64,000 nucleotides of DNA from Eubacteriales bacterium (lineage in GTDB: Bacteria; Bacillota; Clostridia; Oscillospirales; CAG-272): contig JAZRDO010000019.1 of the NCBI GenBank assembly GCA_045660325.1, positions 496-64,495 on the forward strand, read 5' to 3'. Position 1 is the first letter of the stretch; every line of letters begins with the position of its first letter. Of the stretch, positions 4,676 to 50,587 are shown piece by piece. The translations under genes and the position numbers were made by a program. A model generated the notes under the pieces. The model made no database searches, was not told the origin of the DNA, and saw only the letters and a program-made list of their open reading frames with translations.

Positions 4676-6328
4676 TTAAACAGTTTCTCTGGCAATAATA
4701 CGCGAGCCGATAGCCGCCTGAATCGGCACCTCAAAGAGCTGACGCGGGATATTTTCCTTGAGTCGCTCTGCGATCTTTCTAGCTCTGCCGTACGCCTTCT
4801 CCTCGTGAACGATAAAGGAAAGCGCGTCGACCTGCTCGCCATTGAGCATAAAGTCAAGCTTAACAAGCTTAGAGGGAACGTAACCCATAAGCTCGTAGTC
4901 AAGCGACGCGTAACCGCGAGAGCGGCTCTTGAGCGCATCAAAGAAGTCGTAAATAATTTCGTTGAGCGGAAGCTCATAATGAAGCTCAACTCTTGTGGAG
5001 TCAAGATATTTCATATCCACGAAAATACCGCGACGGTCCTGGCAAAGATCCATAAGACCGCCCACAAATTCGGTGGGAGTGATAATATTCGCCTTTACCA
5101 TAGGCTCTCTCGCCTCCTTGATATTGTCGGGGGACGGGAAGTTCGAGGGGTTGTCGATCGTGATCATCGAGTTATCCATAAGCGTTACCTCGTAAATAAC
5201 GCCAGGCGCGGTCGTGATAAGATCAAGATTGAATTCGCGCTCAAGTCTCTCCTCGATAATTTCCATGTGAAGAAGACCGAGGAAGCCACAACGGAAGCCA
5301 AAGCCCAAAGCAATAGAAGTTTCGGGCTCAAAGGTGAGAGCCGCATCGTTGAGTTGAAGCTTTTCAAGAGCGTCACGAAGATCGGGATATCTCGCACCGT
5401 CCGCAGGATAAATACCCGCAAATACCATAGGCTGAGCCGCCTTGAAGCCCGGAAGAGCCTCGACAGCAGGGTTGTCCTTCAAGGTAACCGTATCACCAAC
5501 TCGTGTGTCGCCAATGCTCTTGATTGATGCGGTAAGGTATCCTACCTCGCCCGCGCGGAGCGTGTCGCACTTGCGAAGGCCGAAGGCCTCCATCGTACCA
5601 ACCTCAACAACCTCAAATTCCTTGCCCGTGCTCATAAGCTTGATCGTGTCGCCAGCGGAAAGGCAGCCGTCGATAACTCTGATATTAACAACGACACCGA
5701 GATAGCTATCGTAGTAGGAGTCGAAAATAAGACACTTGAGAGGCGCATTCTCGTCGCCCGTAGGCGCAGGAATGTCGCGCACAACTGCCTCAAGAACGGA
5801 TTCAATATTAAGTCCCGTCTTGGCGGAAACCGCAGGACAGCCCTCGGCAGGAATGCCGATCTCGTCCTCAATTTCCCCTCTTACACGTTCAACGTCCGCA
5901 CTGGGAAGGTCTATTTTATTAATTACAGGTACTATCTCGAGTCCCGCGTCTACCGCGAGATAGGCGTTGGCAAGCGTCTGTGCCTCAATACCCTGTGTGG
6001 CGTCCACGACGAGGAGAGCGCCGTCACAAGCGTTGAGTGAACGGGAAACCTCGTAGTTAAAGTCAACGTGACCGGGAGTATCAATAAGATTGAAAACATA
6101 CTGCTCGCCATCGGGGGCAGTATAATCAAGCTTTACCGCTCGCGCCTTGATAGTGATTCCTCTCTCTTTTTCAAGATCCATATTGTCGAGAATCTGCTCC
6201 TCCATCTCGCGCTTCGAAACCGCCTGAGTGGACTCAAGGATTCTATCGGCAAGAGTGGACTTACCGTGGTCAATATGCGCGATAATCGAGAAGTTACGTA
6301 TTCTCTTCATTCTTTCATTTGTTGCCAT
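4676..6328 (-). CDS. lepA: elongation factor 4 (LepA), truncated by an in-frame TAA at 4676-4678
   Basis: G1 motif [15 protein letters not shown] and DTPGHVDF. The ORF ends ...[11 protein letters not shown], exactly where homologs continue K-A-(L/M)-RKDV. Confidence 0.9.
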
Positions 6329-6672: not shown

Positions 6673-7290
6673 TCAACCAAGCTCCTCAATATTTTTCTTG
6701 TTTGCTTTCCTTGCCGAAGAAATAAGTCTTACACAAGAAACAGTATACATAACGAATGAAAAAATCATAAACGATGCCGAGAATATAATAAGTGCGGTGG
6801 ATAAAACGGGGGGAATCGCGTCCCACAAAAGAACGTGCAGGCAAATCACAAGATAAAGGATCACCGTGTTCGCCTTACCGTGCCATGCTGCGCCCTCAAC
6901 CGCATCGGCAACCTCAAAAAGACGGAGGCGAAGAATAAAGGAAACGATCTCCTTTATCGGCATAATACATAGCGGCAGGAGCATCATGGGAAATTCGCCC
7001 ACAAGACAAATTATGATAGCAAGCTGAGTAAGCTTGTCCGCAACAGGATCGATCATCTTGCCGAAATCGGTTATCATATTAAAGCGGCGCGCAATAAATC
7101 CGTCAATGATGTCGGTCGCAGATGACACGAGGATAACAATTAGCGCAGCTACGTGATTATCGCGATGATAGAAGAAAACTATTAAAGGAATAAGCGCCAA
7201 GCGTAAAAACGACAGCATATTTGGGATCGTAAATATCTGTTCTTTTGTAAGACGGGATTTGTAGTCCGCCCTTCTGGTTTCCTTATCCAT
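6673..7290 (-). CDS. pgsA: CDP-alcohol phosphatidyltransferase (PgsA-like)
   Basis: D-x2-DG-x2-AR-x8-G-x3-D-x3-D motif (DIIDGFIARRFNMITDFGKMIDPVADK); polytopic membrane protein. Confidence 0.85.
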   Translation of the reverse strand: MDKETRRADYKSRLTKEQIFTIPNMLSFLRLALIPLIVFFYHRDNHVAALIVILVSSATDIIDGFIARRFNMITDFGKMIDPVADKLTQLAIIICLVGEFPMMLLPLCIMPIKEIVSFILRLRLFEVADAVEGAAWHGKANTVILYLVICLHVLLWDAIPPVLSTALIIFSASFMIFSFVMYTVSCVRLISSARKANKKNIEELG

Positions 7291-7464
7291 CTCAAGCCTC
7301 CTCTCTTATGATTATCAAAGTATATTTTTGCCAAAAATTTGTTCATATAATATTATACAATTAAAATATTTTATTGTCAATAGAAAAAATATGCCGTATA
7401 AATTGCGCAATATAAAATTAAAGAATATTTTTCTAAAAAAAGACAAAATATTTTGAAAAAAGTA

Positions 7465-7493
7465 TTGACAAAGTGGATATAATTTGCTATAAT
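7465..7493 (+). promoter_or_regulatory. consensus sigma-A promoter of tRNA-Gln
   Basis: TTGACA (7465-7470), 17-nt spacer, TATAAT (7488-7493). It sits 18 nt upstream of the tRNA 5' end. Confidence 0.75.
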
Positions 7494-7511
7494 GATTGAG
7501 CGTTAAAAAAT

Positions 7512-7587
7512 TGGGGCATCGCCAAGCGGTAAGGCATCAGACTCTGACTCTGACATTACCGGGGTTCGAATCCCTGTGCCCCAGCCA
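7512..7587 (+). tRNA. tRNA-Gln (anticodon CUG), CCA encoded
   Basis: Acceptor TGGGGCA/TGCCCCA, D-arm GCCAAGCGGTAAGGC, anticodon arm TCAGA-CTCTGAC-TCTGA, T-arm CGGGG-TTCGAAT-CCCTG, discriminator G plus CCA. Close to E. coli tRNA-Gln. Confidence 0.95.
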
Positions 7588-7626
7588 AAAACAAAAAGAC
7601 CACTTTTAGTGGTCTTTTTTGTTTTT
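7588..7626. terminator. bidirectional terminator T1
   Basis: AGACCACT-TTT-AGTGGTCT hairpin flanked by an A-tract and a T-tract. Confidence 0.85.
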
Positions 7627-7640
7627 CGTTAGGAAAATCC

Positions 7641-7763
7641 GATTCGAACCCCCCGCGAGCCAATTTGCAAAGCAAATGGCGAGAATGTTTTGCGCTTATA
7701 TTATGCCGATTTAAATATATACGTAGGCGCAAAACTAGGTTCAGAATCCCTGTGCCCCAGCCA
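7641..7763 (+). repeat. tRNA-Gln-linked structured repeat unit A1
   Basis: Starts GATTCGAACCCCCC, the reverse complement of the tRNA-Gln T-arm. Contains hairpin CCAATTTGC-AAA-GCAAATGG and helix GTTTTGCGC(7687-7695)/GCGCAAAAC(7727-7735). Ends AGGTTCAGAATCCCTGTGCCCCAGCCA. Confidence 0.85.
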
Positions 7764-7802
7764 AAAACAAAAAGACCACTTTTAGTGGTCTTTTTTGTTT
7801 TT
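7764..7802. terminator. bidirectional terminator T2 (identical to T1)
   Basis: Same AGACCACT/AGTGGTCT hairpin at 7773-7791. Confidence 0.85.
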
Positions 7803-7816
7803 CGTTAGGAAAATCC

Positions 7817-7938
7817 GATTCGAACCCCCGCGAGCCAATTTGCAAAGCAAATGGCGAGAGACGTTTTGCACGTTGATTACTTTGAATTAAGATATACATT
7901 GGTGCAAAACTAGGTTCAGAATCCCTGTGCCCCAGCCA
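7817..7938 (+). repeat. tRNA-Gln-linked structured repeat unit A2
   Basis: Same architecture as A1. The helix is GTTTTGCAC(7863-7871)/GTGCAAAAC(7902-7910). Confidence 0.85.
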
Positions 7939-7979
7939 AAAAATAAAAGGAGTAGCAAAGGCTACTCCTTTTATTTTTT
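7939..7979. terminator. bidirectional terminator T3
   Basis: AAGGAGTAGC-AAAG-GCTACTCCTT hairpin with flanking A- and T-tracts. Confidence 0.85.
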
Positions 7980-7994
7980 CGTATGAGTAATATT

Positions 7995-8115
7995 ATTCGA
8001 ACCCCCGCGAGCCAATTTGCGTAGCAAATGGCGAGAGACGTTTTGCACGTTGATTACTTTGAATTAAGATATAAATTGGTGCAAAACTAGGTTCAGAATC
8101 CCTGTGCCCCAGCCA
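7995..8115 (+). repeat. tRNA-Gln-linked structured repeat unit A3
   Basis: Near-identical to A2. The hairpin loop changes from AAA to GTA. The helix is 8040-8048/8079-8087. Confidence 0.85.
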
Positions 8116-8155
8116 AAACAAAAGAGAGGAACTTTGTTCCTCTCTTTTTGTTTTG
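8116..8155. terminator. bidirectional terminator T4
   Basis: AGAGAGGAAC-TTT-GTTCCTCTCT hairpin with flanking A- and T-tracts. Confidence 0.85.
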
Positions 8156-8171
8156 CTTGAGACCGCTAGAT

Positions 8172-8295
8172 GATGAACCCCCGCAAACACTTGTGTTTGC
8201 TTGTTTGCGGCTCGATTACTTTAATTTATTATATGCTTTGCCGCAAACATAGGTTCAGAATCCCTGTGCGCCTACGGCTTGCAACGGTTCAAATC
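8172..8295. repeat. chimeric Gln/Arg junction unit (A4 on plus, B2 on minus)
   Basis: GATGAACCCCC, then hairpin GCAAACAC-TT-GTGTTTGC, then helix GTTTGCGG(8203-8210)/CCGCAAAC(8241-8248). This is followed by AGGTTCAGAATCCCTGTGCGCC and then TGCAACGGTTCAAATC, which is the Arg T-arm sequence in plus orientation. Confidence 0.8.
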
Positions 8296-8307
8296 ATAAA
8301 GGATAAA

Positions 8308-8345
8308 CCAAAAAGATGCGAGGGGTATTCCCCTCGCATTTTTTA
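8308..8345. terminator. bidirectional terminator T5
   Basis: ATGCGAGGGG-TATT-CCCCTCGCAT hairpin with flanking A- and T-tracts. Confidence 0.85.
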
Positions 8346-8543
8346 GCCTGCCCGAACGGATTTATGTTCGCCGCGTCAACTTCCGTTGACATCAAATGCG
8401 ACGAACGTTGAGAATGCACGCATTCTCACGTGTGCGCGGATGTCTAACACCGACATCCGCTACACAGTTTTGCGGTAAGGTATATCTATTCCAAAGCACT
8501 TCAAACCGCAAAACAGCACCCTTCGGGTGCAACGGTTCAAATC
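8346..8543 (-). repeat. tRNA-Arg-linked structured repeat unit B1
   Basis: On the minus strand it starts GATTTGAACCGTT, the reverse complement of the tRNA-Arg T-arm. It contains hairpin GCACCC-GAA-GGGTGC, a helix GTTTTGCGG/CCGCAAAAC, and three further hairpins. It ends in 18 nt (AAATCCGTTCGGGCAGGC) identical to the tRNA-Arg 3' end. Confidence 0.85.
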
Positions 8544-8554
8544 GTAAAGAATAA

Positions 8555-8595
8555 ACGAAAACAACAACAGGGGGCTTTGCCCCCTGTTGTTGTTT
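8555..8595. terminator. bidirectional terminator T6 (terminates tRNA-Arg)
   Basis: ACAACAACAGGGGGC-TTT-GCCCCCTGTTGTTGT, a 15-bp stem with flanking A- and T-tracts. Confidence 0.85.
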
Positions 8596-8672
8596 TGGCC
8601 TGCCCGAACGGATTTGAACCGTTGACCTTTAGAGTCGGAGTCTAACGCCCTATCCAGCTGTGCCACGGGCAG
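8596..8672 (-). tRNA. tRNA-Arg (anticodon CCG), CCA encoded
   Basis: Minus-strand acceptor CTGCCCG/CGGGCAG, D-loop AGCTGGATAG, anticodon arm TTAGA-CTCCGAC-TCTAA, T-arm AACGG-TTCAAAT-CCGTT, then G plus CCA. Confidence 0.9.
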
Positions 8673-8685
8673 ATATTACCTATAT

Positions 8686-8714
8686 ATTTTACCACAAAGA
8701 AAAGTATTTTTCAA
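8686..8714 (-). promoter_or_regulatory. sigma-A promoter of tRNA-Arg
   Basis: Minus strand reads TTGAAA, 17-nt spacer, TAAAAT, with a TG two nt upstream of the -10 element. Confidence 0.7.
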
Positions 8715-8744
8715 TAATTTTTTGCCGATAAAATCAAATAATTC

Positions 8745-8773
8745 AAAAACACCCCCGCGGATAACCGCGGGGG
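8745..8773 (-). terminator. terminator of the 460-aa lipoprotein gene
   Basis: CCCCCGCGG-ATAA-CCGCGGGGG hairpin followed by a T-run on the minus strand. Confidence 0.8.
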
Positions 8774-8793
8774 ATAACAGTTAATATTAAATA

Positions 8794-10176
8794 TTAGCCT
8801 GCTGTTGTAAGTGTAAGGTCTGTATCGTTAGCAACAACTTCGATTGTGAAGTCCTTAATACAGTACTTTTCACCTGTTGCATTGTTGATCATGAAGAGGT
8901 GAACTACGTCGCCGCTCTGAAGATCGGATGCGCCGAGCCAATACTTATAAATGGAAGCACCGGGAAGATTAGCGCCTGCAATCGCACCGCCGATACCGGG
9001 GTTAACGTGATGGTCAACTGCTGTACCGTTAACGGTCTTCATAAACTCACCGTTTCTGTAAACCTCGCCGCTGAAGGAAACGTTGGTGTAATCAAGTCCC
9101 TGGCCATAAAGTGCGCTGAAGCCTACCCAACCTTCAATTGTGAAGATGTGATCAGCAACCTCAATATCCTTCTGGAGAATTCTGAGGACCTTATTCCATG
9201 TATATGTAGGTGTGTTGTTACCGATGGAGTCACCGATTACAGAGCCTCTGTTCCAAACTCTAAGTCTGTCAGATCTACCTGCAGCGTCTGTAAGGTTGTG
9301 AGAGGACTTACATGTGTCGAAGGATACAATGTAAATGGGGTTCTGAGAATCCTGCATTGTAACGTGACCGAATTCATCTCTATCAGCTACGTAGATCTCG
9401 TCGCCTACGCAAACTGCTTCCATCTTGAAGATAGTCTGAACGTCGCCTTCAAGGTTCTTTCTACCGAACCATACAGTTACGTATTCTTCATCCTCGTATT
9501 CATCAAGGCTGATAGTAACGTCGTAGTTAGCGTTGAAGGGATTAAGATTCTTGATCTGAGCGATCTTAGCGAAGGGCTCCATAGCCGCATAATCCTGATC
9601 GGAGTAAGATGCCTTAGTAACCGCCTTCCATGTTGCGCCGTAGTCATCGGACCAAACCATATCGCCCTGACCACCCTCAAGGATAGCCCAGCCGGAGATG
9701 TTGATGCTTCTGCAGTAGTAGTCAAGCTGACCGTCAGCTACAGGAGGCCAATATACAGCGTTGGGGTTCTGTGTGTTAGGAGAAATTGTGTGGTAACCGT
9801 TAGCGATAGAGAACTTTCTACCGTCCTGACCGAGACCGTTGATAGCTGTCAATGTACCGATGTAAGGAATTGTTTCCTGTACAGGAGGAGGTGTGGGATC
9901 ATCTGTGCCACCACCGCTAGTTGTATCCGATGTTGTATCGGATGTTGTATCGGATGTTGTGTCGGATGTTGTGTCGGATGTTGTATCCGAGGTTGTGTCC
10001 TGAGGAAGGTCACCGGTATTGCCTTCGTCATCTGTATCCTTTGTTGTAGTAGGATCCTCTACGTTCTGAGAGGGATTCTCGGGGTTTGTAGGTGTCTCGC
10101 CGCCACCGTTGTTACAAGCCACGAAAATTACAGTAAACGCAAGAACAAGTGCCAATGCGATAAGTAATTTCTTCAT
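8794..10176 (-). CDS. secreted lipoprotein with (TSDTT)n linker, unknown function
   Basis: Lipobox MKKLLIALALVLAFTVIFVAC. Low-complexity Thr/Ser/Asp/Pro linker followed by a roughly 350-aa globular region. The start is taken as ATG 10176 rather than the upstream TTG. Confidence 0.6.
   Translation of the reverse strand: MKKLLIALALVLAFTVIFVACNNGGGETPTNPENPSQNVEDPTTTKDTDDEGNTGDLPQDTTSDTTSDTTSDTTSDTTSDTTSDTTSGGGTDDPTPPPVQETIPYIGTLTAINGLGQDGRKFSIANGYHTISPNTQNPNAVYWPPVADGQLDYYCRSINISGWAILEGGQGDMVWSDDYGATWKAVTKASYSDQDYAAMEPFAKIAQIKNLNPFNANYDVTISLDEYEDEEYVTVWFGRKNLEGDVQTIFKMEAVCVGDEIYVADRDEFGHVTMQDSQNPIYIVSFDTCKSSHNLTDAAGRSDRLRVWNRGSVIGDSIGNNTPTYTWNKVLRILQKDIEVADHIFTIEGWVGFSALYGQGLDYTNVSFSGEVYRNGEFMKTVNGTAVDHHVNPGIGGAIAGANLPGASIYKYWLGASDLQSGDVVHLFMINNATGEKYCIKDFTIEVVANDTDLTLTTAG
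9920..9999. repeat. tandem 15-bp coding repeat (about 5-6 copies) encoding TSDTT
   Basis: GGATGTTGT(A/G)TC(G/C)-type period visible directly in 9920-9999. Confidence 0.8.
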
Positions 10177-26133: not shown

Positions 26134-26265
26134 AAAAATAAGCCCTCGGATTTCCCGAGGGCAGAAATGCTTTGTATGCACTCATCTCTCAGGAATTAGC
26201 ACCTTGCAATATGCAGGTTGCCGGGCTTCACAGGGCCAGTCCCTCCGCCACTCTTGATAAGGATT
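26134..26265 (-). promoter_or_regulatory. SAM-I (S-box) riboswitch with terminator, leader of metK
   Basis: Minus strand reads CTTATCAAGAGTGGCGGAGGGACTGGCCCTGTGAAGCCCGGCAACC...AAGGTGCTAATTCCTG, followed by hairpin GCCCTCGG-GAAAT-CCGAGGGC and a T-run. Confidence 0.85.
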
Positions 26266-27875: not shown

Positions 27876-28052
27876 AAAAAAATCCCCTTTCTAATAAGGG
27901 GGGATACAAAAGCCAATTATGGCATACTTGTTTTTCTCATCCGGACTTTACCGTCGGTCGAGGAATCACACCCCGTCGGCATCAAAAGATGTTCGCAGAC
28001 TACGCCGTAGCGATTACTGCCGGTATGGAATTTCACCAATCCCCAAATCAAG
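27876..28052 (-). promoter_or_regulatory. FMN riboswitch (RFN element)
   Basis: Minus strand reads GGGGATTGGTGAAATTCCATACCGGCAGTAATCGC...GATGCCGACGGGGTGTGATTCC...GACCGACGGTAAAGTCCGGATGAGAAAAAC. A hairpin plus T-run lies just before the RBS. Confidence 0.85.
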
Positions 28053-28065
28053 TTTTAAAATATTC

Positions 28066-50461: not shown

Positions 50462-50587
50462 ACCCGCAAGGGATACCTCGAGCCGACCGACGAATTTGAG
50501 CGGAGCACCGCAAGGAAGGCGCGGGGAATAGGCGCCGTTCGTCTGGGCAGTATCTATCAAAGGTAAAAGATAGGTCTGTCCTTTTTT
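50462..50587 (+). promoter_or_regulatory. ZTP riboswitch (pfl motif) with intrinsic terminator
   Basis: CCGACCGACGAAUUUGAGCGGAGCACCGCAAGGAAG ... GCGCCGUUCGUCUGGGCAG parallels the recalled F. ulcerans ZTP aptamer (UGACUGACGGAAC...CCGACCGUCUGGGCG). The pseudoknot pair covaries (GACGA/UCGUC). GGGCAG...CUGUCC followed by UUUUUU forms a competing terminator. Confidence 0.8.

Follow-up and report, generated by a model that had tools for sequence, protein, structure and literature searches.

What kind of element can build the same gene-less, structured repeat behind two different tRNA genes? The question is raised by an array of 1 kb between the convergent genes for tRNA-Gln(CTG) and tRNA-Arg(CCG) of a Eubacteriales bacterium (contig JAZRDO010000019.1). 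The window analysed here is a 64 kb stretch of that contig (64,000 nucleotides); all coordinates without a prefix are positions in this window, and L-numbers denote comparison loci. The array was found to be composed of Gln-side and Arg-side cassettes, in each of which a copy of the 3' end of the neighbouring tRNA is followed by a terminator and a structured module, and the same module was found behind other tRNAs in other genomes. These cassettes look like a miniature mobile element of gut Clostridia that inserts into the T-loop of tRNA genes and had not been described before; no description of such arrays was found in the literature.

Organization of the array

Both tRNA genes have a consensus promoter, that of tRNA-Gln being a perfect TTGACA-17-TATAAT (7465-7493). 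From 7568 to 8615 the sequence is occupied by four cassettes behind tRNA-Gln and about two behind tRNA-Arg (Table 1), and within the 64 kb window the array motifs are confined to the stretch between the two genes. The parts of each cassette follow the order tRNA 3' segment, bidirectional terminator, spacer of ~14 nt, left inverted repeat (IR-L), hairpin P2, helix P3 and right inverted repeat (IR-R). The tRNA 3' segment opens in the T-loop, with GAATCC on the Gln side and AAATCC on the Arg side, and the natural repeat unit runs from T-loop to T-loop. The Gln-side copies extend from GAATCC through CCA, and the copy in unit B1 has CTA in place of CCA. Helix P3 is formed by GTTTGCGC...GCGCAAAC (also written GTTTTGCNN...NNGCAAAAC), IR-R reads (C)TAGGTTCA, the right end of the module reads ...GGTTCA, and the pseudo T-loop that results has 8 nt (TTCAGAAT). 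Short-form cassettes measure 162-177 bp. In the long form, of about 250 bp, three further hairpins (H4, H5 and H6) lie between P3 and IR-R.

The tRNA 3' segment is present as 4-5 direct repeats on the Gln side (GAATCC...CCA) and as three on the Arg side, with spacings of 175, 177 and 162 nt and of 252 nt, respectively; the first 20 nt of cassette c1 are the 3' segment of tRNA-Gln itself, from 7568 (GAATCC...). Six A-tract/hairpin/T-tract terminators are present (Table 1), each at the centre of a long imperfect palindrome (I2, I3), and a terminator scan of 7200-9000 gave 13 terminator-like sites, where shuffled sequences gave 2.2 +/- 1.6. The cassettes are mosaics. Cassettes c1 and c2 differ in P3 only and share an 86-nt block at 100% identity (7568-7653 and 7744-7829, repeat D3), the copy number of the near-identical units A1 and A2 being as assembled; c2 and c3 have P3 99% identical (69-nt repeat D2, including IR-R and the core start) and differ in terminator and spacer. 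The remnant at 8258-8273, which adjoins the Arg-side array, is the oldest Gln core.

The initial annotation had described this region as an array of structured units, and the tRNA genes, the six terminators and the repeated units were all recovered. The reverse complement of the neighbouring T-arm that it had placed in the units was likewise found, over 14/14 nt twice on the Arg side (I16, I17) and 12/12 nt on the Gln side, as was its spaced helix, which reads GTTTTGC...GCAAAAC in A1-A3 and B1 and has the variant TGTTTGCGGC...GCCGCAAACA in J. Its statement that no open reading frame (ORF) is present was loose, in that two ORFs of 65 and 68 aa overlap the region, both unsupported. B1, which it had listed with the other units, shares the order of parts and belongs to the longer form with three extra hairpins.

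Table 1. Positions of the tRNA genes, cassettes and other features. R1, score with the covariance model built from the units.
Feature	Position	Strand	Composition and evidence
tRNA-Gln(CTG)	7512-7587	+	ARAGORN; Rfam tRNA 57.1 bits
c1	7568-7743	+	tRNA 3' segment, terminator T0 (7588-7625), 14-nt spacer, unit A1 (7641-7749) ending ...GGTTCA; direct-repeat families D1-D3; R1 70.5 bits; minimum free energy fold is a three-way junction
c2	7744-7918	+	core copy, terminator T1 (7763-7801; identical to T0), unit A2 (7817-7924); R1 75.4 bits
c3 (Y)	7919-8095	+	core copy, terminator T2 (7938-7979), unit A3 (7994-8101); R1 69.2 bits; homologous T2-type cassettes in L093 (twice) and L098
c4 (X)	8096-8257	+	core copy, terminator T3 (8115-8157), unit J (8169-8263); R1 76.8 bits
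Truncated, mutated tRNA-Gln 3' remnant (GAATCCCTGTGCGCC)	8258-8273	+	sequence reading and alignment
b2, partial Arg-side cassette	8282-8363	-	tRNA-Arg 3' copy (8363-8345), bidirectional terminator (8344-8311), spacer, IR-L(Arg) GATTTGAACCGTTG (8295-8282); repeats D4, D5 and I16
b1, long-form Arg-side cassette	8364-8615	-	tRNA-Arg 3' segment, terminator (8596-8558), 14-nt spacer, IR-L(Arg), P2, P3, H4, H5, H6, split IR-R; fold; homologues in L093 and L098
tRNA-Arg(CCG)	8596-8672	-	ARAGORN; Rfam tRNA 56.8 bits
Promoter block of ~85 nt, window	7425-7511		
Promoter block of ~85 nt, L093	3780-3865		
Promoter block of ~85 nt, L098	2180-2265		
Promoter block of ~85 nt, L097	421-505		
SAM riboswitch	26179-26263	-	above Rfam gathering threshold
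FMN riboswitch	27925-28054	-	above Rfam gathering threshold
ZTP riboswitch	50473-50555	+	above Rfam gathering threshold

Occurrence of the module in other genomes

An exact-pattern scan with the right-end motif GCAAAMNTAGGTTCAGAATCC, performed on one genome per species (185,579 species genomes), returned seven loci in as many species, from Oscillospiraceae, Eubacteriales, Faeciplasma and Clostridia metagenome-assembled genomes, with units following tRNA-Pro(CGG), tRNA-Arg(ACG) and tRNA-Gln(CTG). A looser pattern applied to metagenomes gave 69 loci, five of which were true members (L015, L033, L039, L061 and L076), following tRNA-Arg(CCT), tRNA-Trp and a tRNA-Met-like 3' end; the remainder were chance matches and were reused as negative controls. 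Altogether the module was found in at least 12 other Oscillospiraceae/Clostridia assemblies, behind tRNAs for Pro, Arg (three anticodons), Gln and Trp and behind the Met-like 3' end, its units being collinear and 95-109 nt long across 12 or more genomes. Direct repeats of the tRNA 3' segment also occur in L001-L007, L015, L033, L093 and L098. With covariance model R1 the true units scored 46-95 bits and about 60 chance loci scored at most 19 bits.

Comparison across tRNAs also separates the part of the cassette that belongs to the element from the part that belongs to the tRNA. The word xAGGTTCA is constant whatever the tRNA, identity with the cognate tRNA begins only at GA(A/T/G)TCC, and the junction xAGGTTC-A-GAxTCC has one A more than the cognate T-loop in every case. 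The pseudo T-arm is thus no degenerate version of the neighbouring one; it is the conserved right end of the element, joined to the tail of the cognate tRNA. The copy of the neighbouring tRNA 3' end described in the initial annotation holds from GAATCC onwards, and its left part, xAGGTTCA, is the element's own; likewise TAGGTTCAGAATCC does not derive from the neighbouring T-arm by decay and is a conserved part of the element that lies beside other tRNAs in other species.

Other repeats were seen at tRNA tails of the comparison loci. In L001 (2590-2650, 2751-2830 and 3076-3190) pseudo tRNA-Pro 3' ends contain a 35-nt hairpin (GATAGTTAATCCGAGC.AAGCG.GGATT.ACT...), single or in up to three tandem copies, placed exactly between AATCC of the T-stem and TCACC of the acceptor strand, a second kind of insert at the same tRNA tail. 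On the minus strand of L033 (~1000-1220), on the strand of tRNA-Trp and ~100-330 nt past the cassette, a run of at least five small hairpins rich in GC was seen, with words resembling (G)ATGAAATC/AAATCC in front of each; these form another repeat family beside a tRNA tail. In L007 (5476-5724, minus strand) two tandem tRNA-Ser(GGA) genes were called, the one at 5476-5564 with its anticodon at an odd position (29); a 28-bit match to the cassette model (5487-5582) covers the 5' flank and body of this odd tRNA and is probably a false positive driven by the T-arm, or a pseudo-tRNA.

Folding of the module

On folding alone, 18 of the 19 distinct units formed a three-way junction in which IR-L pairs with IR-R as P1 and the two hairpins are P2 and P3, the exception being a decayed outer copy in L015. 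In an alignment of 15 units 85.6% of the cells were paired, compared with 78% in column shuffles (0/500 reached the observed value) and at most 45% for slid partners, and 10 pairs showed changes on both sides. P1 covaries, GAACCTC being found with TAGGTTC and GAACCCC with GGGGTTC, and its centre is irregular, with a bulged A or tandem G.A/A.G. P2 has wholly different sequences between cassettes, three versions of it in the window, and forms a perfect hairpin each time, with loops that are mostly of 3 nt and of the C-GNA-G type.

The long form is known from b1 of the window, from the sole cassette of L098 and from the second cassette of L093. Of its additional hairpins, H4 has a conserved 7-nt loop, H5 an invariant GAGAATG...CATTCTC stem and H6 an inner GGAA-capped hairpin. 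The fold of b1, computed with RNA parameters, has -83.6 kcal/mol (z = -5.4), and the consensus from three sequences contains 51 pairs, 12 of them compensatory. Because H5 and H6 are matched by the covariance model as a further P2 and P3, the long form can be described as two modules joined by H4; the short forms look like deletions between similar GCNGCAAA strands.

Base-pair statistics were used to judge whether the fold is kept as DNA or as RNA. Among paired positions 470 were Watson-Crick, 19 were G.T and 16 were A.C, with no asymmetry between strands; P2 and P3 were 93-94% Watson-Crick with ~1% G.T, and both strands were equally stable on folding. A functional RNA normally has many G.U pairs, and on its own strand only. 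An attempt to assign a strand to a putative RNA failed, as energies and G.T/A.C counts were symmetric. No conserved promoter for the units was found, and only ~14 nt separate a strong terminator from the unit; P3 loops were considered as promoters and rejected, the -10-like motif occurring in AT-rich genomes only and not being conserved. No downstream gene open to regulation was seen, the neighbours being convergent or having their own promoters. Taken together, the pair statistics, the strand symmetry and the lack of a promoter and of a regulated gene suggest that the structure is selected at the DNA level rather than as RNA. In the array region only the two tRNAs passed against Rfam 15 (including T-box, tmRNA, Y-RNA-like and ribozyme families), and the best other match was sraA, at 33 bits against a threshold of 56, on a terminator. 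The three RNA roles offered in the initial annotation (tRNA mimics, antisense sponges and decoys) are left without support by the lack of room for a promoter, the 8-nt pseudo T-loop, the decayed outer copies and the symmetry of G.U and A.C (19 vs 16).

Complementarity of IR-L to the cognate tRNA

IR-L consists of the reverse complement of the T-stem 5' strand plus TTC plus GAATC, and thus covers the end of the target's left flank together with the first bases of the cassette. At four loci it is a perfect complement of the cognate tRNA over 12, 14, 11 and 11 nt, and at the other loci the match extends over 5-7 nt of the cognate T-stem plus TTC. In the Gln cassettes IR-L fits the tRNA (GGGG) better than its own IR-R (TAGG). 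T-loop and IR-L lie equally far from the terminator, at ~14 nt on either side, and the two stretches in between lack complementarity. This tracking of the cognate tRNA across seven or more tRNA species would be hard to explain unless the complementarity is used, and IR-L recalls the guide sequences of single-strand transposons (IS200/IS605).

Variation of the array among relatives

Synteny at the pgsA-lepA-hemN locus extends to relatives that share 61-64% identity with the window in PgsA, and the number of cassettes behind tRNA-Gln was found to differ among them. L097 has a plain terminator and no cassette; L098 has one long cassette with a T2-type terminator; L093 has a J-type cassette with a T3-type terminator, followed by an A3-type long cassette with a T2-type terminator; and the window has four, namely two more cassettes and then the two types of L093 in opposite order (Y-X in the window, X-Y in L093). 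T2 and T3 accompany their units from lineage to lineage and the outermost terminator is unique to each genome, as is predicted if a block of tail, terminator and module is inserted into the tRNA 3' segment. Cassette c4 and the first cassette of L093 (X/J-type) are 93% identical in genomes whose PgsA is 64% identical. They differ only in the spacer and in the loops of the terminator and of P3, P2 being identical at 18/18 positions, which indicates that the stems are under constraint.

In L003, L006, L007, L015 and the window the outer copies have suffered truncation or mutation. One T2-type cassette in L093 (875-1015, minus strand) is ectopic, without a tRNA, between a DegV gene and a GntR gene and 2.3 kb from the array; terminator, spacer, IR-L, P2 and P3 are kept, IR-R is mostly deleted, and the partial core CCCTGCACC matches the acceptor sequence of the L098 type and not that of L093. 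The promoter block of ~85 nt upstream of tRNA-Gln (an A/T-rich block plus TTGACA-17-TATAAT; Table 1) is near-identical in the four genomes, among which the anticodon stem of tRNA-Gln has changed by compensatory substitutions.

In the closest relatives (L011-L014, PgsA 85-90% identical) all four contigs break off 116-284 nt upstream of pgsA, at the position of tRNA-Gln or shortly before it, and the cassette array probably breaks short-read assemblies at this point. Exact look-ups of the flanking proteins, made for strain comparison, showed that the window's own proteins are not on record. In L097, whose tRNA-Gln has no cassette, an orphan word resembling IR-L (GGATTCGAACCTTGCGG) lies on the minus strand ~170 nt past the tRNA gene (150-215) with a terminator behind it, and may be the last trace of a lost cassette.

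Search for an enzyme or an autonomous relative

Housekeeping DNA makes up the window (rpoBC, the str operon, mnmG-rsmG-parAB and rnpA-yidC-jag-trmE), and the riboswitches in it (Table 1) are ordinary features. Flanking genes without Pfam hits were checked as enzyme candidates and none was found; the apparent junk ORFs at 28-32.6 kb proved to be antisense shadows of ordinary minus-strand genes. An origin from a phage attP site was rejected, there being no true matches in the phage database, in IMG/VR (three pattern scans) or among plasmids, and the matches at L008 and L088-L092 were chance matches inside genes.

A large serine recombinase gene lies just upstream of the units at two loci, L002 and L039, and was considered as the source of the enzyme. 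Homologues of the L002 recombinase are conserved up to ...SDKVACGRP (DNA ...GGGCGAC) and then all diverge, which places the crossover (slash) at GGGCGAC/CA, at the tRNA CCA end and upstream of the units. Elements 92-94% identical to that of L002 (L009 and L010) and relatives of the second enzyme (L084-L087) have no units. With its crossover at the CCA end, its open-ended ORFs and its unit-free homologues, the large serine recombinase was rejected as the cassette enzyme; these elements simply share the tRNA as a target, independently. The recombinase ORFs of L002 (6479-7975, minus strand), L009 (10001-11587), L010 (10001-11548) and proteins P0121-P0136 lack a stop codon of their own and have a variable tail of 10-90 aa read from the sequence that happens to follow; the crossover appears to lie inside the 3' end of the recombinase gene, typically at CGAC/CA plus an A-tract, a tRNA-Pro-like CCA end.

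Origin of the array

We propose to read the array as stacked, non-autonomous cassettes that insert into the T-loop, each with a structured recombination module that acts at the DNA level, a reading in which we place about as much belief as doubt. A cassette would enter between TTC and GAATCC of the tRNA T-loop, and the tRNA gene would stay intact because the cassette brings a new 3' end and terminator; the former 3' end and terminator would be shifted outwards. Repeated insertion, together with unequal crossing-over between cores, would build the array, the outer copies decaying afterwards. The module would be a recombination site acting as folded DNA, in which IR-L would pair either with the T-arm of the cognate tRNA or with the end of its own cassette (IR-R), and the enzyme would act in trans. 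The data show the anatomy of the cassettes, the family with its fold, the absence of a resident recombinase and, between related genomes, cassettes gained, lost and reordered; entry at the T-loop, a form as single-stranded DNA and a guide or splint function of IR-L are inferred from them. The comparative data agree with the view of the initial annotation that the units are not random duplication debris, and of its four proposed roles a miniature tRNA-targeting mobile element family is the one that fits them.

Several observations weigh against this proposal. The 64 kb window and the flanks of the arrays contained no recombinase, transposase or HUH enzyme, and no autonomous element with the module was found in the exact-pattern scan of species genomes or in IMG/VR, phages and plasmids. 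Neither a circular form nor an empty/filled polymorphism within a species was observed. The differing order of cassettes could also be produced by duplication followed by differential loss, and their spread among relatives by enzyme-free homologous recombination on the promoter, the tRNA and the 20-26 nt core. The DNA-level folding is deduced from base-pair statistics only, and how one family comes to have cognate 3' ends and a cognate IR-L at seven or more tRNAs lacks an explanation. A more novel reading, which we put forward tentatively and consider unlikely, is that the array represents a new class of guide-directed single-stranded-DNA insertion cassettes. A cassette of ~175 nt would then excise or replicate as a single-stranded circle, at the junction of which ...GCAAAACTAGGTTCA would be joined to GAATCC-core-terminator of the same cassette. 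IR-L, as a splint, would pair with the joined ends (...GGTTCA/GAATC...) or with the T-loop strand of the tRNA (...GGTTC/GAATC...), and cutting and joining at the paired site would fall to a host enzyme of HUH or tyrosine type. Base pairing would set the target and could be re-tuned to any tRNA, which would account for the agreement of IR-L with the cognate T-stem at seven or more tRNA species.

Direct repeats of the tRNA 3' end that start in the T-loop are the classic signature of an integrase, and the cassettes could be ordinary att scars, similar to cis-mobilizable elements (CIME-like): conventional prophages or integrative elements with a tyrosine or serine integrase, inserted repeatedly at tRNA 3' ends, would have lost their interiors and left attL/attR arms, and the module would be an attP arm of double-stranded DNA whose inverted repeats bind protein. 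Cis-mobilizable remnants as well as tandem accretion have been documented (PMC5704250, PMC7563491), and serine recombinases stand upstream of the units at L002 and L039. Yet those enzymes cross over at the CCA end and have homologues without units, random deletion of interiors would not yield collinear units in 12 or more genomes, no complete element bearing the module turned up in the species genomes, IMG/VR, phages or plasmids, and one DNA-binding protein cannot explain a P2 that varies in sequence within a genome and is a perfect hairpin each time; we consider such scars improbable, if worth serious attention. Structured RNAs are a less probable source of the conserved fold, whether as small RNAs of their own or as read-through 3' extensions in which IR-L sequesters the T-arm and the 3' tail mimics the acceptor strand, with a role in processing, quality control or sensing. 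The strong and conserved folds, the GGAA tetraloop and 7-nt loop kept in the long form, the perfect complementarity of IR-L to the cognate T-arm at four loci, the terminators that flank the units and the -10-like TATAAT or TATA of a few P3 loops (L015, window) would all suit an RNA, but the units have no conserved promoter and little room for one behind a strong terminator, their pairs show no G.U/A.C asymmetry (G.U ~1% in P2 and P3) and both strands fold equally. Their outer copies decay, cassette number ranges from 0 to 4 among relatives, and there is neither an Rfam match nor a downstream gene to regulate.

Two explanations would dispense with an inserted element. The array may have formed in place, by slippage, hairpin-induced template switching and unequal crossing-over in a palindrome-rich terminator region followed by gene conversion, and the identical 86-nt block of neighbouring cassettes, the mosaics (A1 and A2 differing in P3 only, A2 and A3 sharing P3) and the palindromes centred on the terminators are in keeping with such a history. 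It is nevertheless very unlikely to account for a module with GTTTGCGC/GCGCAAAC and xAGGTTCA behind seven or more tRNAs in many species, for cassette terminators that are common to lineages when the outermost are not, for an ectopic copy away from any tRNA, or for compensatory changes that keep the stems. That a single repeat was inflated by the assembly is suggested by the contigs of L011-L014, which end at or near tRNA-Gln, and by the long identical stretches in A1 and A2; comparable arrays in many independent assemblies from different projects, and window cassettes that differ in terminator, spacer and P3, make such an artefact highly improbable.

If the proposed insertion cassettes are mobile, they would rank among the smallest integrative elements known and would show that gene-less modules can 're-tail' a tRNA gene serially. 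They would also offer a compact, fold-defined recombination site with an IR-L arm that is apparently tunable by pairing, of interest for mobile-DNA biology and for site-specific insertion tools. The arrays probably disrupt short-read assembly at tRNA loci of gut Clostridia and could pass for prophage att scars; if scars are all they are, the result is a tidy description of an unusually regular decay product.

Comparison with known systems

As stated in the initial annotation, the array matches no catalogued element: no Rfam, phage or plasmid match was obtained, and it is not a CRISPR array, an attC array, a repetitive extragenic palindrome or a T-box. A CRISPR array was rejected on the period of 162-252 nt with internal inverted repeats, the sub-threshold CRISPR-DR63 matches lying on terminators only. 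Repetitive extragenic palindromes and bacterial interspersed mosaic elements (REP/BIME) were rejected because the motifs occur only between the two tRNAs in 64 kb and are not dispersed. A miniature inverted-repeat transposable element was rejected as well: IR-L and IR-R are present, but no consistent 2-10 bp flank duplication was seen and IR-R is continuous with the tRNA 3' copy. The att site of a large serine recombinase was rejected on the position of the crossover, at the CCA end and upstream of the units, and on the homologous elements without units.

In integrons the attC site is set by its fold, a stem with unpaired bases (PMC2727003). The cassettes described here share with integron cassettes the promoterless arrays, the newest cassette nearest the insertion point, the fold-defined site, the unpaired bases in the stem and the reordering. 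They differ in having no IntI, attI, Pc promoter or ORF, no R''/L''-L'/R' boxes or GTTRRRY core, and no tyrosine recombinase near the array; GTTTTGC...GCAAAAC stands in the opposite arrangement, the fold is a three-way junction and not a single hairpin, the target is a tRNA T-loop and the host belongs to the Clostridia. Acinetobacter pdif modules are similar in being small modules between short sites of alternating orientation without a resident recombinase; unlike the cassettes, they are gene-carrying plasmid modules with XerC/XerD sites, and have no tRNA link or conserved fold. With CTX-phi and other elements that enter the chromosome through host XerCD as a folded single-stranded attP, the cassettes as read here have in common a forked hairpin, built of two inverted site halves, that mimics the chromosomal target duplex, a central irregularity, effectively irreversible tandem arrays and the use of a host enzyme, whereas their target is not dif, no Xer-type 11-6-11 site is recognisable, and they are 30-fold smaller and non-coding.

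The comparison with palindrome-associated transposable elements (PATE) of the IS200/IS605 type is drawn on general features of the family, which moves by single-strand 'peel and paste' transposition. Subterminal hairpins (~20 nt in from the end on the left, ~8-10 nt on the right), internal pairing with the cleavage or junction sequence, insertion 3' of a short specific target (here GTTC), the lack of target duplication and, for miniature forms, an enzyme acting in trans are points in which the cassettes would resemble this family. In contrast to IS200/IS605, the left hairpin of the cassette is a variable terminator, not a conserved TnpA site, and the cassette copies the 3' flank of the target; TnpA was not seen in the window or in the array flanks, and no TnpB was found there.

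The remaining comparison is with tRNA-targeting integrative elements, for which tandem accretion and cis-mobilizable remnants, with the integrase supplied in trans, are documented (PMC5704250, PMC7563491). The cassettes are unlike these elements in being gene-less, uniform and only 162-250 bp long, in their three-way-junction fold, in lacking an autonomous partner and in using one module for seven or more tRNAs; of the features that identify an integrative element, tRNA 3' direct repeats and variable occupancy were observed here, and an integrase or an autonomous relative sharing the att site was not. What the two have in common is a repeated tRNA 3' segment, a tRNA restored by the element, stacking, and remnants without an integrase.

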